From NCBI GenBank assembly GCA_013403045.1, contig GCA_013403045.1_3037.1: a DNA stretch of 64,000 nucleotides, one strand, 5' to 3'. Every line of letters begins with the position of its first letter. Positions within the stretch are counted from its first letter, which is position 1. Below, one piece after another: positions 279-64,000 of the stretch. Under the pieces are notes generated by a model that did no database searches, was not told the origin of the DNA, and worked only from the letters and a program-made list of their open reading frames with translations. This DNA is from Escherichia coli O157:H7. Its GTDB lineage: Bacteria > Pseudomonadota > Gammaproteobacteria > Enterobacterales > Enterobacteriaceae. The position numbers were made by a program, and so were the translations under genes.

Positions 279-2336
279 ATGATGGAACTCATTACAGAAT
301 TATTTGACGAAGATACTACTCTTCCGATTACAAACTTAAATCCAAAGAAGAAAATACCACAAATTTTTTCAGTTCATGTTGATGATGCAATTGAACAACC
401 AGGCTTTCGTTTATGTACCTATACATCTGGAGGTGATACTAATCGTGATTTAAAGATGGGCGATAAAATGATGCATATTGTTCCTTTTACATTAACTGCT
501 AAAGGTTCAATTGCTAAATTAAAAGGTCTTGGTCCAAGCCCGATTAATTATATCAATTCAGTTTTTACTGTTGCAATGCAAACAATGCGTCAATATAAAA
601 TTGATGCCTGCATGCTTCGTATTCTTAAGTCTAAAACCGCAGGTCAAGCTCGACAAATTCAACTTATTGCTGATAGACTCATCCGCAGTCGTTCAGGTGG
701 CAGATACGTCCTTCTTAAGGAACTCTGGGATTACGATAAAAAGTATGCATATATTCTTATACATCGCAAAAATGTATCACTAGAAGACATTCCAGGAGTT
801 CCGGAAATTAGTACCGAGCTCTTTACTAAAGTTGAATCGAAGGTCGGTGATGTTTATATCAATAAAGATACTGGAGCTCAAGTAACTAAAAATGAGGCAA
901 TTGCAGCATCTATTGCGCAAGAAAATGATAAACGTTCTGACCAAGCTGTAATCGTTAAAGTTAAAATTTCACGTAGAGCAATTGCGCAAAGTCAATCATT
1001 GGAATCTTCTAGATTTGAAACACCGATGTTTCAAAAATTTGAGGCTTCAGCAGCAGAATTAAATAAACCCGCTGATGCGCCTTTAATTTCCGATGCTAAC
1101 GAATTAACTGTTATTTCTACTTCAGGATTTGCATTAGAGAATGCTCTTAATAGTGTTACAGCTGGAATGGCATTCAGAGAAGCTTCTATAATTCCTGAAG
1201 ATAAAGAATCTGATGTTAATACAGAAATAAAAAATAAAGCTTTAGAAAGATTACGAAAAGAATCTATTACTTCAATAAAAACTTTAGAAACTATTGCTTC
1301 TATAGTCGATGATACTTTAGAAAAATATAAAGGTGCTTGGTTAGAAAGAAATATTAACAAGCATTCGCATTTAAATCAAGACGCTGCGAATGAGTTAGTG
1401 CAAAATTCTTGGAATGCAATAAAAACAAAGATTATTCGAAGAGAATTACGTGGATATGCTCTTACTGTTGGATGGTCATTACATTCTATAGTCGAAAATA
1501 AAGATTCATCTAAATACACACCAGCGCAAAAACGCGGAATTCGTGAATATGTAGGTTCAGGATATGTAGACATGAATAATGCTCTTTTGGGATTATATAA
1601 TCCAGATGAGCGTACAAGTATTTTAACAGCACCTGAAATAGAACAAGCCATCGATAATTTAGATTCAGCCTTTAAAAATGGTGATCGATTGCCAAAAGGT
1701 ATTACTTTATATCGTTCACAGCGAATGTTACCTTCAATATATGAAGCATTGGTAAAAAATCGAGTTTTTTATTTTAGAAATTTTGTATCAACATCATTAT
1801 ATCCAAACATTTTTGGTACTTGGATGACTGATTCAGCTGTTGGTGTTTTACCAGATGAAAAGCGTCTAAACATTTCTATCGATAAAAATGATGAAGGGCT
1901 TGTTAATTCTAGCGATAATTTAGTCGGAATTGGATGGGTTATTACTGGGGCTGATAAAGTCAATGTTGTTTTACCCGGTGGAAGTTTAGCGCCTTCAAAT
2001 GAAATGGAAGTTATTTTGCCACGTGGATTAATGGTCAAAGTTAATAAAATAACTGATGCATCTTACAATGATGGAACAGTTAAAACTAACAACAAGCTTA
2101 TTCAAGCTGAAGTTATGACCACGGAAGAGCTCACCGAATCGGTAATCTATGACGGAGACCATTTAATGGAAACTGGTGAATTGGTTGCAATGACAGGTGA
2201 TATTGAAGTAGAAGACAGAGTTGACTTTGCATCATTTGTTTCATCAAACGTTAAACAGAAAGTAGAATCATCTCTTGGAATTATTGCGTCTTGCATAGAT
2301 ATTACAAACATGCCTTACAAGTTCGTTCAAGGATAA
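279..2336 (+). CDS. alt: Alt ADP-ribosyltransferase (packaged, injected), copy 1
   Basis: 685-aa ORF (T4 Alt about 682 aa); N-terminus MELITELFDEDTTLPITNL; C-terminal R-S-E motifs (TLYRSQ, FVSTSLYP, SNEMEV); true start may be the second ATG at 282. Confidence 0.9.
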   Translation: MMELITELFDEDTTLPITNLNPKKKIPQIFSVHVDDAIEQPGFRLCTYTSGGDTNRDLKMGDKMMHIVPFTLTAKGSIAKLKGLGPSPINYINSVFTVAMQTMRQYKIDACMLRILKSKTAGQARQIQLIADRLIRSRSGGRYVLLKELWDYDKKYAYILIHRKNVSLEDIPGVPEISTELFTKVESKVGDVYINKDTGAQVTKNEAIAASIAQENDKRSDQAVIVKVKISRRAIAQSQSLESSRFETPMFQKFEASAAELNKPADAPLISDANELTVISTSGFALENALNSVTAGMAFREASIIPEDKESDVNTEIKNKALERLRKESITSIKTLETIASIVDDTLEKYKGAWLERNINKHSHLNQDAANELVQNSWNAIKTKIIRRELRGYALTVGWSLHSIVENKDSSKYTPAQKRGIREYVGSGYVDMNNALLGLYNPDERTSILTAPEIEQAIDNLDSAFKNGDRLPKGITLYRSQRMLPSIYEALVKNRVFYFRNFVSTSLYPNIFGTWMTDSAVGVLPDEKRLNISIDKNDEGLVNSSDNLVGIGWVITGADKVNVVLPGGSLAPSNEMEVILPRGLMVKVNKITDASYNDGTVKTNNKLIQAEVMTTEELTESVIYDGDHLMETGELVAMTGDIEVEDRVDFASFVSSNVKQKVESSLGIIASCIDITNMPYKFVQG

Positions 2337-2339
2337 ATC

Positions 2340-4397
2340 ATGGAACTTATTACAGAATTATTTGACGGCGCTTCGGCGCCGGTTGTTAACTTAAATCCTA
2401 AGCATAAAATACCACAAATTTTTGCTATCCAAGCCGGCGAAGAAAGCGTGCTTCCTGGATTTAGATTTTGTACATACACCTCTGGTGGTGATACAAATAA
2501 AAATGTTAAGCCAGGCGATAAAATGATGCATATCGTAATGATAGGTGTCAACGAGAAATTATCGCTGGTTAAGCTTAGAAACTTGGGTGGAAATCCAATT
2601 GGCGTCATTAATGCCGTTTTTGATACTGCTCTTCAAACAATGAAACAGTATAAAATTGACGCATGCCTATTCCGCGTACTAAAAAGTAAAACAAATGGCG
2701 CTGCTCGTCAAATGCAAGTTATTGCTGACCGTTTAGTACGTACTAAAGGAGCAGGTCGATATGTTCTTTTAAAGGAAATCTGGGATTATGATAAAAAGTA
2801 TGCATATATTATGGTTTACCGTAAAAATGCCAATTTAGAAGACATTCCAGGTGTACCTCCTATTTCAACTGAGTTATTCACAAAAGTTGAATCAAAGGTT
2901 GGTGATGTTTATGTAGACGTTAAAACAGGTAATGCTGTTCCTAAAGCTGTCGCTGTTGCTGCTTCTATTGCTTTAGAAAATGATAAGCGCACGGACCAAG
3001 CTGTTATTCAGAAAACTAAAATTAGTCGTCGATTAGCAGCACAAGCTCAATATTCTACTGTTGATGCTTCACTTCAGGGTGATAGCTTCGCTGCTAAGAA
3101 ATATCAAGAGTTTGAATCTAAAGTTCCGGTATATAAAGCAGAAGGACCAATGAACTCTGGCGTTATTCAGATTGGTTCAAACTTCAGCAAAGGAGCTATC
3201 GGTGGTATGAGGAGTGCTTCTCGTTTTAAATCTAGCGATTATGAACTAGAAAGTTTCCGAAATCATATTGCATTAGCCCATGCGCGTTTACGCGATCCAT
3301 CTATCAAGTTGCAGAGCGATACATCATATCAAGGTTCCCAGGAATATTTAAAGAATAAAGACTTCTTTAATTACAAAACTGATAAAATTTTAAGCGATCT
3401 TGCTGATATTAATATTTCTAATAGTTTTGATGTTATTAAGAAAATTATCAATGATTTAGTTAAAGGTTCTAAAGCTACACCAGATGAAAAGACAGCTATT
3501 ATTCAATTTGTAATGAATGGAATTTATAAATTAATTGATGAATCCGCTGCTCAGGCGTATGAATATGCAAGCACTGAAGTAACTCCAAAAGGATTGACTC
3601 AGGCTGAGTCTGATGTAATTGAAGATTATTGCGCAGATTCGTATGTTGAAATGAACTCATTCCTTTTAGGTAAACCTGATTCTACACGTGAAGAATATAT
3701 GGAACGAGCTATTAAACATATTGAGACGCTGGATTCTGCATTCGCTAAAGGTTCAGTTCTTCCTCCAGGAACTACACTTTACCGTGGACAAGAAGTTACT
3801 TTTAAAACTTTGCGTCATAACATTGAAAATAAAATGTTCTATTTCAAGAACTTCGTATCGACATCACTTAAACCAAATATCTTTGGTGAGTATGGTAAAA
3901 ATTATATGGCCTTAGATAATTCCGGAGCAGTATTTTCTGGTGAAGGAGAAGGTTCCGTTGATGCAGAAGATTTGATGCATATGGGTAGTCATTCTACATA
4001 TGCTAATGAAGATGCTGAAACTAGCGTGGGTATGGTAATTAAAGGAGCTGAACGAGTTAAAGTTATCGTTCCAGGTCATTTATCAGGATTTCCATCAGAA
4101 GCTGAAGTTATTCTACCACGTGGAATTTTACTGAAGATTAATAAAGTAAGTACTTACTTTATGAAAGAAACTGCTTATAACAAGTATCTAATCGAAGGTA
4201 CAATCGTTCCTCCTTCTGAACAATTAGAAGAATCAGTATATGATGGCGACCATCTAATGGAAACTGGTGAAGTTCGTCCAATGGCTGGATTTAATCAATT
4301 CCTTGTAGAAGAATCAAAAGAAGAGGAAAACGAAGTTTCTCAAATCTTAGCTTCTTTGGTTAACATCAACGGAATGTCTAAAAAGTTCAAAATGTAG
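2340..4397 (+). CDS. Alt-like ADP-ribosyltransferase paralog, copy 2
   Basis: 685-aa ORF 3 nt downstream of copy 1; same N-terminus (MELITELFDG), same R-S-E motifs (TLYRGQ, FVSTSLKP, SEAEV), divergent central region. Confidence 0.85.
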   Translation: MELITELFDGASAPVVNLNPKHKIPQIFAIQAGEESVLPGFRFCTYTSGGDTNKNVKPGDKMMHIVMIGVNEKLSLVKLRNLGGNPIGVINAVFDTALQTMKQYKIDACLFRVLKSKTNGAARQMQVIADRLVRTKGAGRYVLLKEIWDYDKKYAYIMVYRKNANLEDIPGVPPISTELFTKVESKVGDVYVDVKTGNAVPKAVAVAASIALENDKRTDQAVIQKTKISRRLAAQAQYSTVDASLQGDSFAAKKYQEFESKVPVYKAEGPMNSGVIQIGSNFSKGAIGGMRSASRFKSSDYELESFRNHIALAHARLRDPSIKLQSDTSYQGSQEYLKNKDFFNYKTDKILSDLADINISNSFDVIKKIINDLVKGSKATPDEKTAIIQFVMNGIYKLIDESAAQAYEYASTEVTPKGLTQAESDVIEDYCADSYVEMNSFLLGKPDSTREEYMERAIKHIETLDSAFAKGSVLPPGTTLYRGQEVTFKTLRHNIENKMFYFKNFVSTSLKPNIFGEYGKNYMALDNSGAVFSGEGEGSVDAEDLMHMGSHSTYANEDAETSVGMVIKGAERVKVIVPGHLSGFPSEAEVILPRGILLKINKVSTYFMKETAYNKYLIEGTIVPPSEQLEESVYDGDHLMETGEVRPMAGFNQFLVEESKEEENEVSQILASLVNINGMSKKFKM

Positions 4398-14914: not shown

Positions 14915-15532
14915 TTATGCCTTACTAAATTTGCCTTTAGAATCTCTTTTCATGAGACGACCTTTAATAAATCCGTCGGGAATAATACCGTCTGGTTGTA
15001 TTAATTTATTTATTGCGCCATTATTGACCCAAAAAGTTCCTGTGGTAGTCGGTTTGACTTTACATCCTTTTCTGGACTTTCTATTAGGATGAACCATCCC
15101 TTTTACAAATCCTTCTGGAACAAGTTCTCCAGGTTTAATAAAAATATTTTTAGTTCCATTAGTGTAACAAGTTTTACCTAATACCGTGCCTGGTGAGTTT
15201 TCAAATCTTTTAGCGGAAGATTCTTTCATCTTTGCTATAACCTCTGTAGTCATAACAATTCCACCAATTCCACCAGGTTTCATATTATAATAATTTTTGC
15301 TTTTTATTAGTTCAGGAGTTATAATTTCTTCTTCATACATGTACGCTTCTTCGGAAGTTTTAAACTCTTTTAGTATTGTTCTAGAGAAATTGTTTTCACC
15401 ATATTTCTTTATAGCCTGCTGAATTGCCTTACCGGAACCAAGGTAACCATCATTCAAGTCATCAGTAGAGTGTTTTCCTATATACTTTTTACCATTTATT
15501 AGATTTGTTGTTTCATATACAAAGTGGTACAT
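14915..15532 (-). CDS. segE: GIY-YIG homing endonuclease SegE
   Basis: 205 aa; GIY-YIG motifs (YETTNLINGKKYIGK); same position as T4 segE. Confidence 0.85.
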   Translation of the reverse strand: MYHFVYETTNLINGKKYIGKHSTDDLNDGYLGSGKAIQQAIKKYGENNFSRTILKEFKTSEEAYMYEEEIITPELIKSKNYYNMKPGGIGGIVMTTEVIAKMKESSAKRFENSPGTVLGKTCYTNGTKNIFIKPGELVPEGFVKGMVHPNRKSRKGCKVKPTTTGTFWVNNGAINKLIQPDGIIPDGFIKGRLMKRDSKGKFSKA

Positions 15533-15581: not shown

Positions 15582-16262
15582 ATGATAGATAAAGATTATA
15601 TTGCAGAGCTGAAGGCTCTTGATGATAACAAAGAAGCTAAAGCTAAATTAGCTGAATATGCTGAACAGTTTGGTATAAAGGTCAAAAAGAATAAATCTTT
15701 TGATAATATCGTTGTTGATATTGAAGAAGCCCTCCAGAAGCTCGCTAGTGAACCTATGCCAGAGACTGATGGGTTATCTATTAAAGACTTAATTGATGCT
15801 GCTGATGCTGCAGAGGGATTAAAATATGACGATGAAGAAGTTAATCCAGAAGCAGCACTTCTGATTGATTCTCCAGTTAAATCTGATATTAAAATTGAAG
15901 TGGTAGAAACGGATAAAATTCCTGAAAATACTGATGTTTTGATTGAAGACACTCCTTTTGTTGAAGAAAAGTTTGAACAAGCTGTAGATAAGATTATTGA
16001 ATCTGAAAAGCCGTCTGTATTTACTCTTCCGGAAAACTTTAGCCCGAATCTTCAGCTGATTGGAAAAAATCCAGGATTCTGCACTGTTCCTTGGTGGATT
16101 TATCAATGGATTGCTGAAACTCCGGATTGGAAATCTCACCCAACTAGTTTTGAGCATGCGTCAGCACACCAAACTTTATTTAGCTTAATTTATTACATTA
16201 ATCGCGATGGATCAGTTTTAATTCGTGAAACACGCAACTCTTCTTTCGTAACATTAAAATAA
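15582..16262 (+). CDS. inh: Inh, inhibitor of prohead protease gp21
   Basis: 226 aa as in T4 Inh; synteny. Confidence 0.8.
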   Translation: MIDKDYIAELKALDDNKEAKAKLAEYAEQFGIKVKKNKSFDNIVVDIEEALQKLASEPMPETDGLSIKDLIDAADAAEGLKYDDEEVNPEAALLIDSPVKSDIKIEVVETDKIPENTDVLIEDTPFVEEKFEQAVDKIIESEKPSVFTLPENFSPNLQLIGKNPGFCTVPWWIYQWIAETPDWKSHPTSFEHASAHQTLFSLIYYINRDGSVLIRETRNSSFVTLK

Positions 16263-16271
16263 GGATAACTT

Positions 16272-17696
16272 ATGGCTTTTACAGTTGATATAACTCCTAA
16301 AACACCGACAGGGGTTATTGATGAAACCAAGCAGTTTACTGCTGCACCCAGTGGTCAAACTGAAGGTGGAACTATTACCTATGCTTGGAGTGTAGATAAT
16401 GTTCCACAGGATGGAGCTGAAGCAACTTTTAGTTATGTACTAAAAGGACCTGCCGGTCAAAAGACTATTAAAGTCGTTGCAACAAATACAGTTCCAGAAT
16501 CTGAATCTGAACCTGAAACAGCAGAAGATACGACAACTATCACAGTTCAAAATAAGACACAGACTACTACAATAACAGTAACTCCTGATAGTCCTTCGGA
16601 AGGAGTAATCGGAACAGCTGTTCAATTTACCGCTGCCTTAGATTCACAGCCGCCAGGTGCATCTGCTACGTATCAATGACACGTCGACGGTTCTCCTGTG
16701 GGAGAAGCAACTGACGCTACATTTAACTATACTCCTGCCACAAGCGGAGTTAAAAAAATTAAGTGTGTAGCTCAAGTAACTGCGACAGATTATGATACAA
16801 AGACCGTTACTTCTGACGAAGTGTCGCTGACTGTTAACAAGAAAACCCAAGCGACTACTTTAGTTGTAACTCCTAATAGTCCTTCAGCTGGAGTAATTGG
16901 AACTCCAGTTCAATTTACTGCTGCCTTAGCTTCTCAACCTGATGGAGCGTCTGCTACATATAAGTGGTATGTAGATGATTCTCAAATTGGTGGAGAAACT
17001 AACTCTACATTTAACTATACTCCAACTACAAGTGGAGTAAAAAGAATTAAATGTGTAGCGCAAGTAACTGCAGAAAATTACAATGAAAAGGAAGTTACTT
17101 CTAATGAAGTATCATTGACAGTTAATAAGAAGACAATGAATCCACAGGTTACATTGACTCCTCCTTCTATTAACGTTCAGCAAGATGCTTCGGCTACATT
17201 TACGGCTAATGTTACTGGAGCACCTGAAGCAGCACAAATTACTTATTCATGGAAGAAAGATTCTTCTCCTGTAGAAGGGTCAACTAACGTATACACCGTT
17301 GACACCTCATCTATTGGAAGTCAAACTATTGAAGTTACTGCTGTCGTTACAGCAACCGACTATGATAGTAAAACAGTTAAAACAACAGGTCAAGTTCAGG
17401 TAACTGATAAAGTTGCTCCGGAACCAGAAGGTGAATTGCCTTATGTTCATCCTCTTCCACATCGTACTTCAGCTTATATCTGGTGCGGTTGGTGGGTTAT
17501 GGATGAAATCCAAAAAATGACTGAAGAAGGTAAAGATTGGAAAACTGAAGATCCAGATAGTAAGTACTACTTGCATCGTTATACGCTTCAGAAGATGATG
17601 AAAGATTATTCAGAAGTTGATGTTCAAGAATCACGTAATGGATACATCATCCATAAAACTGCTTTAGAAACTGGTATCATCTATACTTATCCATAA
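16272..17696 (+). pseudogene. hoc: hoc (highly immunogenic outer capsid protein) with an extra Ig-like domain and an in-frame TGA at 16677-16679
   Basis: single frame of 474 codons; N-terminus MAFTVDITPKTPTGVIDETKQFTA and C-terminus as T4 Hoc; stop falls where paralogous repeats have Trp (ATYQ*HVD versus ATYKWYVDD); four tandem Ig-like repeats versus three recalled for T4. Confidence 0.75.
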
Positions 17697-17699
17697 TCG

Positions 17700-17727
17700 A
17701 AAGGGGCTTCGGCCCCTTTCTTCATTT
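17700..17727 (+). terminator. hairpin terminator after hoc
   Basis: aaggggc-ttcg-gcccctt followed by T-rich tract. Confidence 0.6.
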
Positions 17728-17785
17728 TGAAAGCACACAAAACACAATCAGAAAATGATGTATATAATGGCACCAACTCGATAAC

Positions 17786-18001
17786 ATGAGATTGATTATG
17801 AGAACTGAAGTTGTGGTGTTTACACTTCATGAGTCTGGAAAGTCATTCATTGAAATTGCTCGTGAATTAAACTTACAGGCGAAAGAAGTGGCTGTATTAT
17901 GGGCTCGAGCTATGACTGCAAAGAATAAATTTGAGACTCGAGAAAAAGTTGTCTATAGAAAAAGACACATTAATAAAAAGGTGAAAAATGGAACAGTATG
18001 A
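17786..18001 (+). CDS. small protein, possible helix-turn-helix (24.3-position)
   Basis: 71-aa ORF. Confidence 0.5.
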   Translation: MRLIMRTEVVVFTLHESGKSFIEIARELNLQAKEVAVLWARAMTAKNKFETREKVVYRKRHINKKVKNGTV

Positions 18002-54416: not shown

Positions 54417-54654
54417 GAATTATTTGTTATTATTAACTCATACCGCACTGATTAATACCCTCTATCATCAGAGAAAGTCCAATAGGCAGAACAGGAGATT
54501 GGATTCTTTTAATTATGCTTGTTAATATTTTGACAGCAGCAATATTATCTGGGATATGGTGCGCGTTCATTGAAATGCCATGGCGGTTACGCAGACAGCA
54601 AAAGATTTTTGATGAAAAGAAATATACTCAAAATTTAAATAACTTTATCACTGA

Positions 54655-55642
<988 letters not shown>

Positions 55643-55646
55643 AGTT

Positions 55647-55676
55647 ATTTACTTTCTCCTAGAATTGTGATAGTAT
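55647..55676 (+). promoter_or_regulatory. early-type promoter (ATTTAC N18 TAGTAT)
   Basis: upstream of the internal-protein gene at 55737. Confidence 0.4.
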
Positions 55677-55736
55677 ATTCACAGTTACTTGAAGAGATAA
55701 ATTATTAATTAAAATATTTACATTTAAAGGATACAC

Positions 55737-56210
55737 ATGAAAACATATCAAGAATTTATTACTGAAGCAGCTATTAATTCTCAAATTATTGCTGAATCTT
55801 TTACTGATCTTTTGAAATTTAAAAAAGGTCAAAAAATCACTGCTGTATTGGATGATGGTACAGAAGTTGAGATGGATGTACAGGGATATAATTATGCAGT
55901 AGATGGAAAACTGTATAATAAATCTCATGCTAAATTTGATTCATTTGACGACTTTGTTAATACAGTTGAAGATGAAAAAACTCGTAGATCCATTGCAACT
56001 GGCGACGCTAAGGTTCTTATGGCACATGGCCATGAACGCATCCGCGCTAAACAGAATAAAATGGGCGAAGATAATTTTGCATTAGTTGGTTATCAATCTG
56101 GTAAACAAACTTATGGCTATCAGCGTACTGCTACCATGTATAACAAAAATGGTAAAATTGCCTTTGTGAATAGTAAAGGTTCTATTCAGTACGTTAAATC
56201 GTTCAAATAA
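55737..56210 (+). CDS. internal protein (Ip) family member with capsid-targeting sequence
   Basis: 157 aa; N-terminus MKTYQEFITEAAINSQIIAES with I-T-E and I-A-E gp21 cleavage motifs; adjacent to e as ipIII/ipII are in T4. Confidence 0.7.
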   Translation: MKTYQEFITEAAINSQIIAESFTDLLKFKKGQKITAVLDDGTEVEMDVQGYNYAVDGKLYNKSHAKFDSFDDFVNTVEDEKTRRSIATGDAKVLMAHGHERIRAKQNKMGEDNFALVGYQSGKQTYGYQRTATMYNKNGKIAFVNSKGSIQYVKSFK

Positions 56211-56315
56211 GCAAATAAGAAATATGGGAACAAGCTGGACCTCATGATTCTGTGAGGGATTCCCGCCAACCTGTAATAAGGTCGAGCCCAAGTGCGGTAA
56301 TGGGTAAATACAGAA

Positions 56316-56903
56316 ATGGACAATTCATGCGCCATGGAATGGCCCAAATTTAGAGAGAATAAAATGAGAACATTTTTAACTGGTCCTTATCTATCCCTGA
56401 TGAATGCTTTTACACACCATTCTGATGCTAGAGTAGAAGAAATTTGTAAAAACGATTATATCCCACCATTTGAAGAATTACTTAAACAGTATTGCACACT
56501 TCGACTAGATGGTGGACGTCAATCCGGTAAATCAATTGCTGTGACTAACTTTGCTGCTAATTGGTTGTATGATGGCGGAACAGTTATCGTTCTTTCTAAT
56601 ACTTCAGCTTACGCTAAAATTTCTGCAAATAACATTAAAAAGGAATTTTCGCGTTATTCTAATGATGATATACGTTTTCGTTTATTTACTGATTCTGTGC
56701 GCAGTTTTATTGGTAATAAAGGAAGCAAGTTCAGAGGTTTATCGCTTTCGCGAATTTTGTATATAATTGATGAGCCTGTCAAATCTCCTGATATGGATAA
56801 GATTTATAGTGTCCATATTGAGACTGTACACTACTGCTGTAATAGTAAATGTTGTATTGGTGGTATTACTCGTCCACAGTTTTTCGTAATCGGAATGCAA
56901 TGA
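56316..56903 (+). CDS. P-loop NTPase, function unknown
   Basis: 195-aa ORF; Walker A GGRQSGKS and Walker B-like LYIIDEP; C-terminal Cys cluster; start codon uncertain (56316, 56334 or 56364). Confidence 0.55.
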   Translation: MDNSCAMEWPKFRENKMRTFLTGPYLSLMNAFTHHSDARVEEICKNDYIPPFEELLKQYCTLRLDGGRQSGKSIAVTNFAANWLYDGGTVIVLSNTSAYAKISANNIKKEFSRYSNDDIRFRLFTDSVRSFIGNKGSKFRGLSLSRILYIIDEPVKSPDMDKIYSVHIETVHYCCNSKCCIGGITRPQFFVIGMQ

Positions 56904-57229
56904 TGACAGACACTCAGCTTTTCGAATATCTTTATTTTTCGCCAAAAACTATTAAAAATAAATTGGTGAATCATTTTGAAATTTTGGCAAATAACAACGT
57001 CTTGAGCGAATTTTATCCTAAGCAATACAAATTACAAAAAGGCGTATTCAAAGGATGCAGAGTTTTGTGTACTGCTCCTAATGCACGGCTAATGAATAAA
57101 ATTCCATATTTTACCATGGAATTTATTGATGGTCCTTTTAAAGGACTAATCACACAGAGTTTAATGGCATATGATTCTGAGCCATTTTTAATTAAAGAAC
57201 AATCTTGGATAAATTTATTTTCTAATTGA
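56900..57229 (+). CDS. hypothetical protein translationally coupled to the P-loop NTPase
   Basis: 109 aa from ATGATGA overlap with the upstream stop. Confidence 0.5.
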
Positions 57230-57236
57230 GGTTTAT

Positions 57237-57599
57237 ATGAAAGCATATCAAATTCTTGAAGGCACACATAAAGGTACTATTTATTTTGAAGATGGTATTC
57301 AAGCACGAATTATTGTCTCTAAAACCTTTAAAGAGGACTCTTTTGTAGACCCAGAAATTTTCTATGGTTTGCATGCCCGTGAAATTGAAATTGAGCAACA
57401 GCCTACAGTTAAAATTGAAGGTGGTCAACACCTGAACGTTAACGTTCTGCGTCGCGAAACTCTGGAAGATGCAGTTAAGCATCCGGAAAAATATCCGCAG
57501 CTGACCATCCGTGTATCCGGTTATGCAGTTCGCTTTAACTCTCTGACTCCGGAACAGCAGCGCGACGTTATCGCTCGTACCTTTACTGAGAGTTTGTAA
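57237..57599 (+). CDS. autonomous glycyl-radical cofactor (GrcA/YfiD-like)
   Basis: 120 aa; C-terminus [59 protein letters not shown] carries the glycyl-radical motif RVSGYAV; 3' half is GC-rich with host-like codons. Confidence 0.8.
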
Positions 57600-57820
57600 T
57601 GGCAAAGATAATTATTGAAGGTTCTAAAGATGTGCTAAATGCTTTCGCCGAGTGGTTTAGTAATTCAGGCGAACAGCAATTTAATGAAGCCTGGAATATG
57701 GGTGATATTGATGGAATTTATCCTACGACAGAAATTTCTGTTCAAGGATATGGCATTCATGAACCTATTCGTTTAGTTGAATATGATTTATGTACTGGTG
57801 AGGAAGTCAAATATGATTGA
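57599..57820 (+). CDS. hypothetical protein
   Basis: 73-aa ORF, TAATG overlap with the previous gene. Confidence 0.5.
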   Translation: MAKIIIEGSKDVLNAFAEWFSNSGEQQFNEAWNMGDIDGIYPTTEISVQGYGIHEPIRLVEYDLCTGEEVKYD

Positions 57821-58079
57821 AGACATTAAAGGTTATAAGCCGCATACTGAAGAGAAAATCGGTAAAGTGAATGCTATTAAAGACGCTGAAGTTCGTTTAG
57901 GACTTATCTTTGACGCTTTATACGATGAATTCTGGGAAGCACTAGATAATTGTGAAGATGATGAACTCGCGAAGAATTATGCTGAAAGCCTCGATCAGTT
58001 AACTATTGCTAAAACGAAACTCAAAGAAGCCAGTATGTGGGCTTGTCGTGCAGTGTTCCAACCAGAGGAAAAATACTAA
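57813..58079 (+). CDS. hypothetical acidic protein
   Basis: 88 aa from ATG overlapping the upstream stop. Confidence 0.5.
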
Positions 58080-58357
58080 TGGCTCAATTAAGTGCAGGGT
58101 TTGGTTATGAGTATTATACTGCACCTCGTCGTGTATCTGCCGCTCCTAAGAAAATTCAAAGTCTTGATGACTTCCAGGAAGTAGTCCGTAAAGCTTTTCA
58201 GGACTATGCACGTTATCTTAAAGAAGATTCACAGGACTGTCTCGAAGAAGATGAAATTGCTTACTATGAGCAGCGTCTTGAACAGCTTAAAAACTTACAT
58301 GAGGTTCGTGCAGAAGTTTCAAAGTCTATGAATAAATTGATTAGATTTAAAGAATAA
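58079..58357 (+). CDS. hypothetical protein
   Basis: 92 aa from ATG ([13 protein letters not shown]) in TAATG overlap. Confidence 0.5.
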
Positions 58358-58359
58358 CT

Positions 58360-58389
58360 GTTTACTTTTCCTCTTGACTGTGGTATAAT
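58360..58389 (+). promoter_or_regulatory. early promoter (GTTTAC N18 TATAAT, extended -10 TGTGG) for regB
   Basis: -35 at 58360-58365, -10 at 58384-58389. Confidence 0.6.
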
Positions 58390-58416
58390 TTTTCTATCAG
58401 TTAAGAGGAGAATAAC

Positions 58417-58878
58417 ATGACTATCAATACAGAAGTTTTTATCCGTCGAAATAAGCTTCGTCGTCACTTTGAGTCGGAGTTTCGTCAAATTAACAATGAG
58501 ATTCGTGAGGCATCAAAAGCAGCAGGAGTCTCATCGTTTCATCTAAAATATTCTCAACATCTTCTTGATCGTGCAATTCAACGGGAGATTGATGAGACAT
58601 ATGTTTTTGAATTATTCCATAAAATAAAAGACCATGTTTTAGAAGTTAATGAATTCCTGAGTATGCCTCCGCGTCCTGACATTGACGAGGATTTTATTGA
58701 TGGGGTTGAATATCGTCCTGGACGTTTAGAAATCACAGATGGAAATCTTTGGCTTGGATTTACAGTTTGTAAGCCTAATGAGAAGTTTAAAAACCCGTCA
58801 CTTCAATGCAGGATGGCAATTATCAACAGTCGTCGTTTACCAGGAAAGGCTTCTAAAGCAGTAATTAAAACTCAATGA
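58417..58878 (+). CDS. regB: RegB site-specific endoribonuclease
   Basis: 153 aa as in T4 RegB; N-terminus MTINTEVFIRRNKLRR; AGAGGAG Shine-Dalgarno. Confidence 0.8.
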   Translation: MTINTEVFIRRNKLRRHFESEFRQINNEIREASKAAGVSSFHLKYSQHLLDRAIQREIDETYVFELFHKIKDHVLEVNEFLSMPPRPDIDEDFIDGVEYRPGRLEITDGNLWLGFTVCKPNEKFKNPSLQCRMAIINSRRLPGKASKAVIKTQ

Positions 58879-58885
58879 GGTAAGC

Positions 58886-59431
58886 ATGAGAAAAGCACTA
58901 CTCGCTGGTCTATTGGCCATTTCAATGATGGCACATAGCTCCGAGCATACTTTCAGTAATGTCCAACTCGATAACATGCGTTACGCGTATCAATTCGGGG
59001 AACAATTTTCTAAGGATGGAAAATATAAAACACACAAAAATATCCACAAGAGCGGATTAGGTCATATAATGGCTGCTATTTTATGGCAAGAAAGCTCTGG
59101 CGGAGTTAATTTAAAATCTAAACCAAAGCATCACGCCTACGGAATGTTCCAAAATTATTTGCCTACTATGCGAGCAAGAGTTAAGGAACTTGGTTATAAT
59201 ATGACCGATGCTGAAATAAAAAGAATGTTGAATAAACGATCCAATTCAGCTTCCTGGGCGTACATTGAACTTTCTTATTGGTTAAATATACATAAGGGCG
59301 ATATAAGAAAAGCAATATCCTCTTATAATTCGGGATGGAATGTTAAAGCAGGTTCTAAATATGCTTCTGAAGTCCTAGAAAAGGCTAATTACCTTAAAAA
59401 TAATAAACTTTTGGAAATAGTAAATGACTAA
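58886..59431 (+). CDS. secreted lytic-transglycosylase-like protein (vs.1 position)
   Basis: 181 aa; N-terminal signal peptide; catalytic-type E-S motif (LWQESSGG). Confidence 0.6.
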   Translation: MRKALLAGLLAISMMAHSSEHTFSNVQLDNMRYAYQFGEQFSKDGKYKTHKNIHKSGLGHIMAAILWQESSGGVNLKSKPKHHAYGMFQNYLPTMRARVKELGYNMTDAEIKRMLNKRSNSASWAYIELSYWLNIHKGDIRKAISSYNSGWNVKAGSKYASEVLEKANYLKNNKLLEIVND

Positions 59432-59771
59432 AATTTTGGTTTTATGTATAGGATTAATTTCATTTTCTGCTTCTGCGTCAGCAGATACATCATATACTGA
59501 AATTAGAGAATATGTAAACCGCACTGCGGCAGATTATTGTGGGAAAAATAAAGCATGCCAAGCTGAATTTGCACAGAAATTAATATATGCATATAAAGAC
59601 GGAGAAAGAGATAAATCAAGTAGATACAAAAACGATACATTATTAAAACGATATGCTAAAAAGTGGAATACCTTAGAATGTTCAGTTGCGGAGGAGAAAG
59701 ATAAAGCCGCTTGTCATTCAATGGTTGACCGTTTGGTAGATTCTTATAATCGAGGATTGAGTACTAGATGA
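59424..59771 (+). CDS. vs: Vs-like protein (valyl-tRNA synthetase modifier position), secreted
   Basis: 115 aa as in T4 Vs; signal peptide; assignment by size and synteny only. Confidence 0.5.
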   Translation: MTKILVLCIGLISFSASASADTSYTEIREYVNRTAADYCGKNKACQAEFAQKLIYAYKDGERDKSSRYKNDTLLKRYAKKWNTLECSVAEEKDKAACHSMVDRLVDSYNRGLSTR

Positions 59772-60235
59772 TTGTAAAATATATCAAGGGCGATATTGTC
59801 GCCCTTTTCGCTGAAGGTAAAAATATTGCGCATGGATGTAATTGTTTTCACACGATGAAAGCTGGAGTCGCAGGTCAATTAACTAAAGCTTTCCCTAAAA
59901 TTTTGGAAGCTGATAAATTACAGACTGAATGGGGTGATGTAACTAAACTTGGTTCTTATTCAGTCTATGAAAAATACTTTAGGACTCATAAAGCTTACTG
60001 CTTTAATCTTTATACTCAATTTCAACCAGGGCCAAATTTTGAGTATTCCGCTTTAATGAATTGTATGTTAGAATTAAATGAGTTTGGTAAAAATAAACTG
60101 ATTAAACCTACAATCTATATGCCTAGGATTGGTGCAGGCATAGGTAAAGGGAACTGGGATATTATTGAGGGGATTTTAGATACATATTCTTCTAAATTAG
60201 AAATTGTGATTGTTGATTGGGAACCGTTATTATGA
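59768..60235 (+). CDS. macro-domain-like protein (putative ADP-ribose binding or hydrolase)
   Basis: 155 aa; GDIVALF...NIAHGCNCF..MKAGVAGQL and PRIGAGIGKG resemble the two glycine-rich loops of macro domains. Confidence 0.5.
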   Translation: MIVKYIKGDIVALFAEGKNIAHGCNCFHTMKAGVAGQLTKAFPKILEADKLQTEWGDVTKLGSYSVYEKYFRTHKAYCFNLYTQFQPGPNFEYSALMNCMLELNEFGKNKLIKPTIYMPRIGAGIGKGNWDIIEGILDTYSSKLEIVIVDWEPLL

Positions 60236-60444
60236 ATATACATTATCCACATCCATATGACCCAAAGAATAAGGCAGTAATTATTCGTCAATGGGAACGC
60301 ATTTGTCGTACTAAATGTCCAATTAATAGTCCACATGATGTAGATAAAGACTACATTGGAACATTCGTTGAATATACCTTTATTGATAAGAAAGGTCGTA
60401 AACAGCATGTAGAAGAATACTGCTTAAAGGTTACATGGTTATGA
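60232..60444 (+). CDS. hypothetical small protein
   Basis: 70 aa from ATG in ATGA overlap. Confidence 0.45.
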   Translation: MNIHYPHPYDPKNKAVIIRQWERICRTKCPINSPHDVDKDYIGTFVEYTFIDKKGRKQHVEEYCLKVTWL

Positions 60445-60647
60445 GCCAAACTAGTATTCTTAAAAATGCCCACTGTGAAAAGTGTAAATGGCCGGTTGTT
60501 TTTGCTTTATGCAACGATGAAATGGCTTGTGATTTCGATTATTGGTGCTATTGTTCTAATAAAGGATGCATCAATCATAAAGGTGAAGGATTTTATTCGG
60601 GATTTTATCCTTATCCTGATTTCGTTAAAGAAGGTAAACCAAAATGA
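60435..60647 (+). CDS. Cys-rich small protein (possible zinc ribbon)
   Basis: 70 aa, 7 Cys including CxxC. Confidence 0.5.
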   Translation: MVMSQTSILKNAHCEKCKWPVVFALCNDEMACDFDYWCYCSNKGCINHKGEGFYSGFYPYPDFVKEGKPK

Positions 60648-60820
60648 ATGATGATTTAAAATATCAATTATTACGTGAACTTGATGTTTTGATTGAACTT
60701 TCTGCGCAAAAAGGATTTATAATTGGATCAGGTCAAAAAGACCCCAACGGTCATTCAATCGTAGCGGTTATGAATCAGAAACGAGTCATTTTAAAACTTT
60801 TGGGGATTGACATACTGTGA
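60644..60820 (+). CDS. hypothetical small protein (58 aa)
   Basis: ATGA overlap with the upstream stop; not in supplied ORF track. Confidence 0.4.
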   Translation: MNDDLKYQLLRELDVLIELSAQKGFIIGSGQKDPNGHSIVAVMNQKRVILKLLGIDIL

Positions 60821-61002
60821 GTCTAAGCAAAGAACAAAAAGATAAATTGTTTGAGCTTATCCATGAACTTCTAGATGAGCATATAGAAGCAAACACCTTT
60901 TATGATGAATACGGCCCGCTATCTCCCGAACAGCAGGAAGAATTTGCTGATCGGTTTGATAAGAAAGAAAATGAATTAATAGCTTATGTGAATACGCTTT
61001 AA
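60817..61002 (+). CDS. hypothetical acidic small protein
   Basis: 61 aa, GTG start overlapping the upstream stop. Confidence 0.4.
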   Translation: MSLSKEQKDKLFELIHELLDEHIEANTFYDEYGPLSPEQQEEFADRFDKKENELIAYVNTL

Positions 61003-61011
61003 GAAGGTGAT

Positions 61012-61593
61012 ATGGCGAGTTTAATTTTTACTTATGCAGCAATGAATGCTGGAAAATCTGCTTCTCTTTTGACTGCTGCACATAATTATAAAGAACGTGG
61101 AATGAGTGTATTAGTTCTTAAGCCTGCTATTGATACTCGCGATTCTGTCTGTGAAGTTGTTTCTCGCATTGGAATTAAACAGGAAGCGAATATTATTACA
61201 GATGATATGGATATTTTCGAGTTCTATAAATGGGCTGAAGCACAAAAAGATATTCATTGCGTATTTGTAGATGAAGCTCAGTTTTTAAAAACTGAACAGG
61301 TGCATCAATTAAGTCGAATTGTTGATACATATAATGTTCCTGTTATGGCTTATGGATTAAGGACTGATTTCGCTGGAAAATTGTTTGAAGGTTCTAAAGA
61401 ACTTTTAGCGATTGCAGATAAACTTATTGAACTAAAGGCAGTTTGTCATTGTGGTAAAAAAGCGATTATGACAGCTCGATTAATGGAAGATGGAACACCA
61501 GTTAAAGAAGGTAATCAAATCTGTATTGGTGATGAAATTTATGTTTCTTTGTGTAGAAAACATTGGAATGAATTAACTAAAAAGCTCGGTTAG
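61012..61593 (+). CDS. tk: thymidine kinase
   Basis: 193 aa as in T4 Tk; P-loop AAMNAGKS; C-terminal Cys zinc-site pattern. Confidence 0.9.
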   Translation: MASLIFTYAAMNAGKSASLLTAAHNYKERGMSVLVLKPAIDTRDSVCEVVSRIGIKQEANIITDDMDIFEFYKWAEAQKDIHCVFVDEAQFLKTEQVHQLSRIVDTYNVPVMAYGLRTDFAGKLFEGSKELLAIADKLIELKAVCHCGKKAIMTARLMEDGTPVKEGNQICIGDEIYVSLCRKHWNELTKKLG

Positions 61594-61635
61594 TGCAAAA
61601 GTTATAAATAGGTTTATCTAACTAAAGGGGTATAT

Positions 61636-61848
61636 ATGCTACAATTAACTGAAAAGCAACTTCGCAATCTTACTGTTCTTCAATTAGATGAAATTCGTAG
61701 GGAAGTTGGAAATATCATTTCAGCTTTGCGTCGAGAAGTATCACTCAACCAATCTCCGGCAGACTATACTAGATTGCGAAATTTTGAAAAATACCTTGAT
61801 AAAGTTAAGGCCGTGCATCGGCATAAAGTAAATACAGGACAAAAATGA
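61636..61848 (+). CDS. hypothetical protein (rI.1 position)
   Basis: 70-aa ORF. Confidence 0.5.
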
Positions 61849-61860
61849 TAGGAGGCCTTT

Positions 61861-62154
61861 ATGGCCTTAAAAGCAACGGCACTTTTTGCCATGCTAGGAT
61901 TGTCATTTGTTTTATCTCCATCGATTGAAGCGAATGTCGATCCTCATTTTGATAAATTTATGGAATCTGGTATTAGGCACGTTTATATGCTTTTTGAAAA
62001 TAAAAGCGTAGAATCGTCTGAACAATTCTATAGTTTTATGAGAACGACCTATAAAAATGACCCGTGCTCTTCTGATTTTGAATGTATAGAACGAGGCGCG
62101 GAGATGGCACAATCATACGCTAGAATTATGAACATTAAATTGGAGACTGAATGA
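61861..62154 (+). CDS. rI: lysis inhibition regulator rI
   Basis: 97 aa as in T4 RI; N-terminal signal-anchor; position next to tk. Confidence 0.75.
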   Translation: MALKATALFAMLGLSFVLSPSIEANVDPHFDKFMESGIRHVYMLFENKSVESSEQFYSFMRTTYKNDPCSSDFECIERGAEMAQSYARIMNIKLETE

Positions 62155-62537
62155 AATTCAGCGACTTTTCACAAAGTGGAAAACCTTCAAAGGCAGATGA
62201 ATACTTAGGTTTATTAATGGCTGCACAAGCTTATTTTCATTCTGCACATTTTGAAACTAAAAGTTATGCTAGACACAAAGCATACGATTTTATTTTCTCC
62301 GAGTTGCCAGATTTGATTGATAAATTTGGTGAGCAATATTTGGGGTATTCTGGTAGAAAATACACGCCTTCAATTCCAGATGCCAGTAAACTTCCTACCG
62401 ACACAATTAAAATGATTGATCGCATACTAGACCAATCTAACAGCATTTATAAAGAAATGCCTCCAGCCATTCAAAGCACGATAGATGATATTACTGGGAT
62501 GTTTTACCAGAGTAAGTATCTTCTTTCCCTCGAATAA
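62151..62537 (+). CDS. rI.-1-like protein
   Basis: 128-aa ORF, ATGA overlap with rI. Confidence 0.6.
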
Positions 62538-62541
62538 CATT

Positions 62542-62566
62542 AGTCTCCTTCGGGAGACTTTTTTCA
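62542..62566 (+). terminator. rho-independent terminator
   Basis: agtctcc-ttcg-ggagact hairpin followed by TTTTTT. Confidence 0.65.
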
Positions 62567-62574
62567 TTTTACCG

Positions 62575-62604
62575 GTTTACTTTCCGTTTGAGCTGTGGTA
62601 CTAT
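62575..62604 (+). promoter_or_regulatory. early promoter (GTTTAC N18 TACTAT)
   Basis: immediately after the terminator, upstream of the ORF at 62633. Confidence 0.5.
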
Positions 62605-62632
62605 ACAACTATCGGATAAAGAGGAGAACATC

Positions 62633-62821
62633 ATGAAAATTGAAGCACTCAATCAAGAAGGAAATATCTACGTCATCATTAATGGTGATTTTTTCGTCGA
62701 CATGGATGAAGTTACTAGTGAAGAACTTGTAGAATTTCTTAAGAAACGTTATAATATGTGTGATGAAGTTGCAACTCACATGGCGTGTGCAATATTCTCT
62801 CTTTCATATGTGGTGGAATAA
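62633..62821 (+). CDS. hypothetical small protein
   Basis: 62 aa from ATG with AGAGGAG Shine-Dalgarno. Confidence 0.5.
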
Positions 62822-63024
62822 TGATTAGTATCGAACAAGCGGATAAGATTAAAGAATTGGTAGCTTTAATTCGTAAAGCAGACGAGGAACTTAGTGACTT
62901 TGCTTGGTTTTCGTCAGGCATTGCAAATAAAGGCATTGATGAACTTGAAGCTAAAGTTGATAATGCTTTAGAAGCGTTAGATATGTTTCTTGATGAAATT
63001 ATCGATCATAATACGAGAGTTTAA
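62821..63024 (+). CDS. hypothetical acidic small protein
   Basis: 67 aa, TAATG overlap. Confidence 0.5.
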   Translation: MISIEQADKIKELVALIRKADEELSDFAWFSSGIANKGIDELEAKVDNALEALDMFLDEIIDHNTRV

Positions 63025-63026
63025 TT

Positions 63027-63221
63027 ATGCTAACACGCGAACAGTTTGAAAAAATCATTAAATTAGCACGTGATATTGAAATAGATTCATATCAATTGGC
63101 AGTTGAGCATTGTGAAGGATATTCATACGACGGTATAGAAGCAGCTAAAAAGGATTTGGACAAATCTAAAGCTAAGTTAGTTCAATATCTTGAAATGATT
63201 AGGTGGAATAATGAAAACTGA
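63027..63221 (+). CDS. hypothetical small protein
   Basis: 64-aa ORF. Confidence 0.5.
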   Translation: MLTREQFEKIIKLARDIEIDSYQLAVEHCEGYSYDGIEAAKKDLDKSKAKLVQYLEMIRWNNEN

Positions 63222-63384
63222 AAAGCAGATGTTTTTAATGAAACTAATTGAAGAATATGCTAATGCAGTTTCTGACTATGAGTGTTCTTCTCGGGAAAGA
63301 GGTACAGCTTTCGCAAAGGAAGAAATGAAAATCATGGTTGATGCTCACACAAAGCTTCAGAATTTTATTGAAAACGTCATTTAA
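63211..63384 (+). CDS. hypothetical small protein (57 aa)
   Basis: AGGTGG Shine-Dalgarno; overlaps the upstream stop; not in supplied ORF track. Confidence 0.4.
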   Translation: MKTEKQMFLMKLIEEYANAVSDYECSSRERGTAFAKEEMKIMVDAHTKLQNFIENVI

Positions 63385-63386
63385 TG

Positions 63387-63416
63387 GTTTACAAGTTGGC
63401 AAGGTTATGGTATAGT
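63387..63416 (+). promoter_or_regulatory. early promoter (GTTTAC N18 TATAGT)
   Basis: -35 and -10 hexamers with an inverted repeat overlapping the -10 element. Confidence 0.5.
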
Positions 63417-63551
63417 AATCTTGTCAACTGCCAAGGAGAAGAGAATGAAAGTTTTGTTTGTTGTGTATGTGATGATTCAATATAATTACCCAATGTTTAC
63501 TTATAATCTGGTGAACAACATTATTGATATTATTCAAAGGAGTATGTAATT

Positions 63552-64000
63552 GTGAGTGAGTCGAAGAGAATCAATATGAAACGATTAGTATTAGAAGTTA
63601 GTCCGCTTTTTGGTGAATTGACTATAGAAAAAGTAAATAACATGTATCGTTTGACGCAAGAAGACGATATGCTATATTTTACGCCTAGTGAAATCATTCA
63701 TTTAACCCAAATTGAATATCCTTATACTGATAAAATAGTAAGCATCAATGATGAGCACAAAATTCATTTTTATTCTTCATGCCCAGGATTTAATATTAAA
63801 AGTGAGTCAATGTGTTTATCAGTTATCCATTGGGATAGTTTTATAGCTAAGATTAAATATTTTTATTATTCTAATGAAAGAAAACATAGTTTAAAATGGC
63901 TCAAAAATTGCAATGCTATTATTACTAACGCTTGCAATCAGAATGATGAAACTCTTTTAAATGTATCAAAATGTTATGAAGAGGGAGATGTCTTAACTAT
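63552..64000 (+). CDS. hypothetical protein, 3'-partial (runs off window)
   Basis: open frame to the window end; AAGGAG Shine-Dalgarno 9 nt before GTG 63552; in-frame ATG at 63576. Confidence 0.45.
   Translation, partial: MSESKRINMKRLVLEVSPLFGELTIEKVNNMYRLTQEDDMLYFTPSEIIHLTQIEYPYTDKIVSINDEHKIHFYSSCPGFNIKSESMCLSVIHWDSFIAKIKYFYYSNERKHSLKWLKNCNAIITNACNQNDETLLNVSKCYEEGDVLT

Follow-up and report, generated by a model that had tools for sequence, protein, structure and literature searches.

An in-frame TGA in the hoc gene of a phage AR1 sequence is most likely an ordinary knockout mutation or a sequence error

Organization of the hoc locus

The window, a stretch of 64,000 bases analysed at its full length, contains on its plus strand a hoc reading frame that runs from an ATG at 16272 to a TAA at 17694-17696. 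The frame comprises 474 codons with a sole internal TGA at 16677-16679 (codon 136), and the list of open reading frames consequently divides the locus into a 135-aa frame (16272-16679) and a GTG-initiated frame of 332 aa (16698-17696). The original prediction had described the locus as a single 474-codon frame carrying a TGA at codon 136, which is exact as read from the sequence, and the repeat contexts it quoted (ATYQ*HVDGS versus ATYKWYVDDS, and SPSEGVIGTAVQFTAALDSQPPGASATYQ versus SPSAGVIGTPVQFTAALASQPDGASATYK) are exactly as stated. The elements of the locus are as follows.

16261-16265, plus strand: Shine-Dalgarno-like AAGGA, read from the sequence, 6 nt 5' of the hoc ATG and overlapping the inh stop codon
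16272-17696, plus strand: hoc frame of the long, four-Ig allele class with one in-frame TGA; 99.9% identity to AR1_184
16272-16679, plus strand: truncated ORF of 135 aa that covers Ig unit 1 and the linker and runs ~40 residues into unit 2, without the capsid-binding domain
16272-16556, plus strand: Ig-like unit 1 (codons 1-95); the ESESEPE linker microsatellite (16497-16517) lies within it
16557-16844, plus strand: Ig-like unit 2 (codons 96-191), missing in T4 Hoc and bearing the stop; 75% nucleotide and 74% amino acid identity to unit 3
16677-16679, plus strand: opal codon 136; base 16679 is A versus G (TGG, Trp) in AR1, wV7 and O157 typing phage 7, and the next base is C (UGA-C)
16682-16716, plus strand: modest RNA hairpin just 3' of the UGA (z = -2.2, folding versus shuffles; no Rfam match)
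16698-17696, plus strand: in-frame GTG ORF (332 aa), 18 nt past the stop, which keeps the capsid-binding domain; a hypothetical weak reinitiation product
16845-17132, plus strand: Ig-like unit 3 (codons 192-287), orthologue of T4 Hoc domain 2; Pfam PKD match at residues 197-269
17133-17405, plus strand: Ig-like unit 4 (codons 288-378), orthologue of T4 Hoc domain 3; Pfam Ig_3/I-set match at residues 291-358, modelled as a beta-sandwich
17406-17693, plus strand: C-terminal capsid-binding domain (codons 379-474, corresponding to T4 residues 281-376); YVHPLPHR, CGWW and ESRNG are intact by T4 alignment; phrog_21694 match
17699-17720, plus strand: intrinsic-terminator-like hairpin and T-run directly after hoc

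The assignment as hoc, also made in the original prediction, is borne out by three lines of evidence which together show that the frame did not arise by chance. Its identity to the hoc gene of AR1 (AR1_184) is 99.9%, it matches the solved T4 Hoc chains (5vf3_Z/8t1x) at E=5e-214 (5.2e-214) in two stretches of residues 1-109 and 195-474, and PHROG 1149 ('Hoc-like head decoration') matches on both sides of the stop (E=1e-37 and 2e-96). The gene lies where hoc is expected, with inh upstream and 24.3, 24.2 and rnlB downstream. It is homologous to T4 Hoc over its full length, begins with a string of Ig-like domains and, at the level of sequence, has capsid-binding-domain residues that are all identical to T4 in the alignment. 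Every sequence-based mark of Hoc membership is thus present save an uninterrupted full-length ORF, which the in-frame TGA at codon 136 breaks.

A single-sequence AlphaFold model of residues 137-474 yielded beta-sandwich units at pLDDT 70-94 and a C-terminal domain of low confidence; its closest solved folds are tandem Ig/FnIII strings such as those of PECAM-1, Dscam and CD22. The single-sequence model of the 135-aa fragment, with a pLDDT of 41, is too poor to interpret.

A TATAAATA search for late promoters detected no plus strand site immediately upstream of hoc or inh. Because the terminator-like hairpin lies right after hoc, no polarity is expected on the downstream genes. On the opposite strand, the AR1 annotation places a 47-aa 'hypothetical protein' with 'no match to nr' (ar1_183, window 17687-17830, minus strand) antisense over the hoc stop and the terminator; neither wV7 nor O157 typing phage 7 has it annotated, and it is probably not a genuine gene. 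The gene for the GIY-YIG homing endonuclease SegE (window 14915-15532, minus strand) is located between uvsW and inh, beside hoc, in both AR1 and T4, and is missing from wV7 and O157 typing phage 7, which are otherwise almost identical and have uvsW sequence there instead. This is a presence/absence polymorphism of a mobile element.

Four Ig-like units, as the original prediction had it, are found in the window Hoc versus three in T4 Hoc (PMC10385173), as seen in both the T4 alignment and the alignment of the units. Compared with T4 Hoc (376 aa), the window protein gains a 96-residue unit (codons ~96-191) behind domain 1, and its linker is two residues longer; the remainder is ~91% identical over the aligned columns. 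At the DNA level the repeat is a tandem duplication of 288 nt (96 codons) at 16542-16829 and 16830-17117, the copies sharing 74-77% nucleotide identity. A microsatellite of 3.5 GAATCT repeats (16497-16517) encodes the acidic linker ESESEPE that joins Ig units 1 and 2; T4 has a shorter SEGGPE here, and the difference is likely a slippage-prone length polymorphism.

The novelty of the extra unit, implied by the original prediction, is not borne out by the survey of relatives. Sixty Tequatrovirus records were sampled at even steps through 679 matching phage genomes; the hoc form of ~1,416-1,425 bp occurs in 22 of the 60 (~37%) and the 1,131-bp form in 28, the rest having other lengths or C-terminal-only matches. 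The extra unit is therefore part of a common allele class unrelated to the stop, and the long form has been annotated for years as 'large head outer capsid protein'. Nor is the repeat an assembly artefact of collapsed or expanded repeats, assembly having been put forward as a ground for dismissing it, since the same 1,425-bp structure is present in the deposited AR1, wV7 and many other sequences. Within Tequatrovirus the number of Ig units is about 2 to 6: the slur03 Hoc is annotated at 1,995 bp (664 aa), and the portion of it examined contains at least four TYQW units; the hoc match in KIT06 spans just 852 bp. The literature gives a range of 2 to 10 Ig domains for Hoc, with two in ΦPNJ-9 and ten in Muldoon.

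The short, three-Ig hoc of OE5505 provides a record of how units are lost. Compared with window 16557-17132, it is a clean AR1-type chimera that carries 14 of 14 unit-2-specific sites followed by 57 of 57 unit-3-specific sites, with the crossover at a unit offset of ~54-58 (window ~16611-16615), 5' of the stop position. This indicates that the two repeats of a long allele resembling that of AR1 crossed over unequally, with the loss of one unit, and the copy number of Ig units in hoc is evidently in flux through ordinary homologous recombination. As the stop lies in the stretch of unit 2 that would be lost in a crossover like that of OE5505, such an event offers an in-frame escape route to an intact three-Ig Hoc besides true reversion.

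The window differs from AR1 at two places

Comparison of the whole 64,000 bases with AR1 54000-125000 identified the window as Escherichia phage AR1 (AP011113.1 / NC_027983.1), reverse-complemented. There are exactly two differences from AP011113.1, a G>A change at 16679 and a deletion of 6,062 bp at 54470/54471. Window 1-54470 has one mismatch, at 16679 (AR1 107748; A in the window, G in AR1), and window 54471-64000 has zero. Two adjoining full-length paralogues of alt (RNA polymerase ADP-ribosylase), 2,058 bp each, are annotated in the stretch at window ~279-4397 (plus strand), AR1 120030-124148.

The segment absent from the window (AR1 63895-69956) comprises most of ar1_129, e.3-e.8, ar1_136-139, all ten tRNA genes, segD and ar1_141, and its removal leaves a 5'-truncated remnant of ar1_129. 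The junction is blunt and without microhomology; it is spanned by none of 533 matching phage records and occurs in no public genome searched. Blunt deletions without microhomology are atypical for spontaneous T4-type deletions, and the junction raises the possibility of an edited sequence, though it fits an odd spontaneous deletion as well. The genes removed presumably cover only functions that are dispensable according to the T4 literature, and a deletion so confined fits a viable derivative of AR1 with its own history of propagation better than a copy of the deposit with typing errors. ARAGORN found no tRNA gene in the 64-kb window because the deletion takes out the AR1 tRNA cluster. Thus no tRNA encoded by the phage could act on the opal codon, and a phage-encoded suppressor tRNA was ruled out.

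The hoc genes of the window and AR1 differ at one of 1,425 bases, and this is the single SNP of the 64,000-base window. In the AR1 annotation, AR1_184 is an intact protein of 474 aa whose codon 136 is TGG, and since the deposited gene is identical throughout except for G at 16679, the single TGG to TGA change postulated in the original prediction accounts for the allele. TGG also occupies codon 136 in wV7 and O157 typing phage 7, which differ at five other positions. The stop sits, as had been proposed, at a repeat-conserved Trp: this residue is invariant across the four aligned units (93-96 residues each), where it belongs to the invariant T-Y-x-W and forms one of 15 invariant columns, and Trp also stands at the homologous position of another six long alleles, of diverse origin (PhiZZ30, UTI-E2, fPS-90, ime09, UFV09 and slur03).

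The comparison with T4 and T4-like hoc genes suggested in the original prediction showed the stop to be absent from AR1 and all relatives examined, which have TGG. A BLAST search of 50,697 phage records with an 80-nt query centred on the stop gave 23 matching records, the best 14 at 79/80 with TGG as the mismatch; none of the 23 carries the TGA allele. A 26-mer bearing the TGA had no exact match in viral, metagenome or genome contig collections, the negative among viral contigs being weak because the wild-type 26-mer is absent there too. Exact look-up of the 135-aa product in an index of 153 billion genes returned no record. A stop private to the window speaks against any evolved function, and the options are then a real mutation of recent date, an erroneous base or an edit. 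As hoc has no other difference from AR1, that is, no secondary decay, the change is either very recent or not biological.

A less probable reading is that the A at 16679 is not biological. It would stem from a base-calling or consensus error, a change on data entry or a deliberate edit of AR1, and a normal four-Ig Hoc would be made. Such an origin agrees with the G and the intact, annotated 474-aa CDS of the deposited AR1, with the presence of the A in no other record or assembly searched, and with the sole other difference in the window, the blunt excision of 6,062 bp that is found in no public genome and may be a post-assembly alteration. Moreover, a single random substitution has a chance of only about 3-5% of being nonsense. 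On the other hand, site 16679 is outside any homopolymer or other error-prone context, substitution errors are rare in a consensus that is otherwise identical to the reference at 63,999 of 64,000 positions, and hoc is dispensable and repeatedly appears broken in deposited isolates. That the only SNP in 64 kb should be nonsense (~3-5% a priori) fits selection or tolerance in the stock and a deliberate or artificial change equally.

Expected fate of the hoc message

The reading preferred here, with a probability of roughly 60%, is that the window carries a recent, leaky loss-of-function allele of AR1 hoc, created by TGG>TGA at Trp136 of unit 2. The allele is a single step from an otherwise identical intact orthologue, and it affects a gene that is dispensable and recurrently disrupted (PMC10385173; four other lineages, see below). 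TGG to TGA at 16679 is one of only 41 transition-to-nonsense routes in hoc. By this account, a G>A transition at 16679 would turn the codon of the invariant core Trp136 of unit 2 into opal, and the main product would be the 135-aa fragment without the capsid-binding domain. The capsid anchor of Hoc is the C-terminal domain, T4 residues 281-376, for which Fokine et al. named YVHPLPHR, CGWW and ESRNG (PMC10385173). It follows, in agreement with the original prediction, that the 135-aa fragment cannot bind, so that heads would be essentially without Hoc. Hoc can be dispensed with under laboratory conditions, and phages with hoc deleted are in routine use (PMC10385173).

UGA is the leakiest of the E. 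coli stop codons. Low-level readthrough of the UGA had also been raised as a possibility and is plausible (PMC10570021). Some ribosomes may read the codon with Trp-tRNA-Trp, and since the near-cognate tRNA inserts Trp, any such product would be the exact wild-type Hoc of 474 aa. In reporters in E. coli K-12, a context and host that differ from the window hoc and from O157:H7, UGA readthrough by Trp-tRNA-Trp in competition with RF2 amounts to ~2% at 37 °C and 4% at 25 °C (PMC10570021). The RF2 of K-12 is a weak variant, and readthrough products vanish with the B-type RF2 (PMC5373646). In K-12-type hosts the readthrough fraction may be expected not to exceed a few per cent, with still lower values in hosts whose RF2 is fully active, and of the ~155 sites on each head only a handful at most would receive the resulting Hoc.

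A more elaborate version of partial readthrough, in which the stop is a real and maintained 'dimmer' allele, is very unlikely. With the UGA-C read by tRNA-Trp, each head would then bear a few wild-type four-Ig Hoc molecules alongside a secreted or free Ig1 fragment, and the level would be set by the RF2 activity and growth state of the host, giving a host-tunable virion adhesiveness. If this were true, reversion could be expected through A>G or through unequal crossover between units 2 and 3 that deletes the stop in frame, as in OE5505.

Reinitiation at the in-frame GUG at 16698 after termination at the UGA is improbable and would be at best a minor contribution atop the leaky knockout. It would produce a capsid-binding Hoc of 332 aa with a shorter fibre, made up of part of unit 2, units 3 and 4 and the C-terminal domain, which this ORF keeps whole. 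The GTG is accompanied by a weak SD-like GACGGT 6 nt upstream, and reinitiation after nonsense codons is classically documented in T4 rIIB, a precedent that counts for such a product. The Shine-Dalgarno sequence is nevertheless very weak and GUG a poor starter, the GUG is in a hairpin loop whose stem would sequester its flanks, and the two-thirds of unit 2 that remain would not fold and would invite proteolysis. The hairpin itself (16682-16716) has a UUCUCC/GGAGAA stem and a UGUG loop, inside which the GUG at 16698 falls.

Least credible of all is that the UGA is a selected recoding signal, either for programmed readthrough or for selenocysteine, that sets the ratio of a soluble Ig fragment to full-length Hoc. 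The C that follows the stop is compatible with this view, as UGA-C is said, in work attributed to Poole et al. from 1995, to be the leakiest or weakest stop tetranucleotide in E. coli; so are the modest hairpin 3' of the stop (z = -2.2) and the perfect wild-type protein that readthrough by Trp would give. The stop is, however, absent from AR1 itself and every relative examined (TGA in 0 of 23 records; Trp in all aligned long alleles), and selection cannot have made a conserved device of a signal that is a single mutation old. The hairpin is ordinary coding sequence that is present in TGG alleles too and was matched by 6 of 200 shuffles, so that it does not qualify as a dedicated 3' cis element. 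An Rfam search around the stop up to E=10 returned no family match except one chance match, no SECIS among them, and the window has no tRNA or suppressor gene. Selenocysteine insertion, a SECIS and other RNA elements were accordingly rejected. The TGA in the window hoc is most likely an ordinary knockout mutation or a sequence error, not a new biological device.

Significance and comparison with known systems

Hoc mediates adherence to mucus and mucin, influences aggregation behaviour and is the major immunogen (PMC10385173, PMC11853027). Should the base be real, the AR1 stock would be effectively hoc-null or very sparsely decorated, and, given these roles, its users would find mucosal retention and antigenicity changed. 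The free Hoc sites would be open to in-vitro display. AR1 is an O157:H7-specific phage of biocontrol interest, and the practical meaning of the finding is that of a quality-control flag on the stock or on the sequence. A literature search on AR1 hoc specifically found nothing relevant within the library searched. Null alleles of hoc, variable Ig-domain number and leaky UGA codons are all established, and no new biological question arises. The W136opal change is the only undocumented element; the type of lesion, nonsense in a dispensable accessory structural gene, is well known.

The nearest relative of the window gene is AR1 hoc itself (AR1_184, BAI83192.1; AP011113.1 106731-108155), with which it shares 1,424 of 1,425 bases, the flanking genes (inh; 24.3, 24.2 and rnlB), the four Ig-like units and the C-terminal domain; the two are distinguished by TGG (Trp) at codon 136 in AR1 versus TGA in the window. 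T4 Hoc (NP_049793.1, 376 aa; solved in 5vf3, 8t1x and others) is alike in its 91% identity, synteny and capsid-binding motifs, and its domains 1, 2 and 3 correspond to Ig units 1, 3 and 4 of the window. In contrast to the window, T4 Hoc is intact, is without the 96-residue unit 2 and has an Ig1-Ig2 linker two residues shorter.

T4 display strains with a hoc deletion and broken hoc genes among deposited sequences resemble the window in that a single nonsense or frameshift lesion abolishes a dispensable decoration protein in phages that remained viable, were propagated and were deposited. As deposited, hoc is disrupted in at least four other lineages, namely UFV09-11, OE5505, SfPhi01 and ACG-C40. 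The hoc gene of vB_EcoM-UFV09 carries Q63>stop, and UFV10 and UFV11 are the same by annotation; OE5505 has a Gln>stop in its last Ig unit; in SfPhi01 and ACG-C40 the reading frame shifts at the A-rich SGVKK stretch. These lesions differ from that of the window in their sites, and none is an opal codon at the conserved Trp.

The classical phage case of UGA readthrough is the Q-beta A1 protein. With the leaky UGA codons of nudL and pheL, which are read by tRNA-Trp, the window allele would share its expected mechanism, competition of Trp-tRNA-Trp with RF2 (PMC10570021, PMC5373646). The stops of nudL, pheL and Q-beta are native, and readthrough in Q-beta is conserved and functional, whereas the UGA of the window hoc is private, premature and unconserved.
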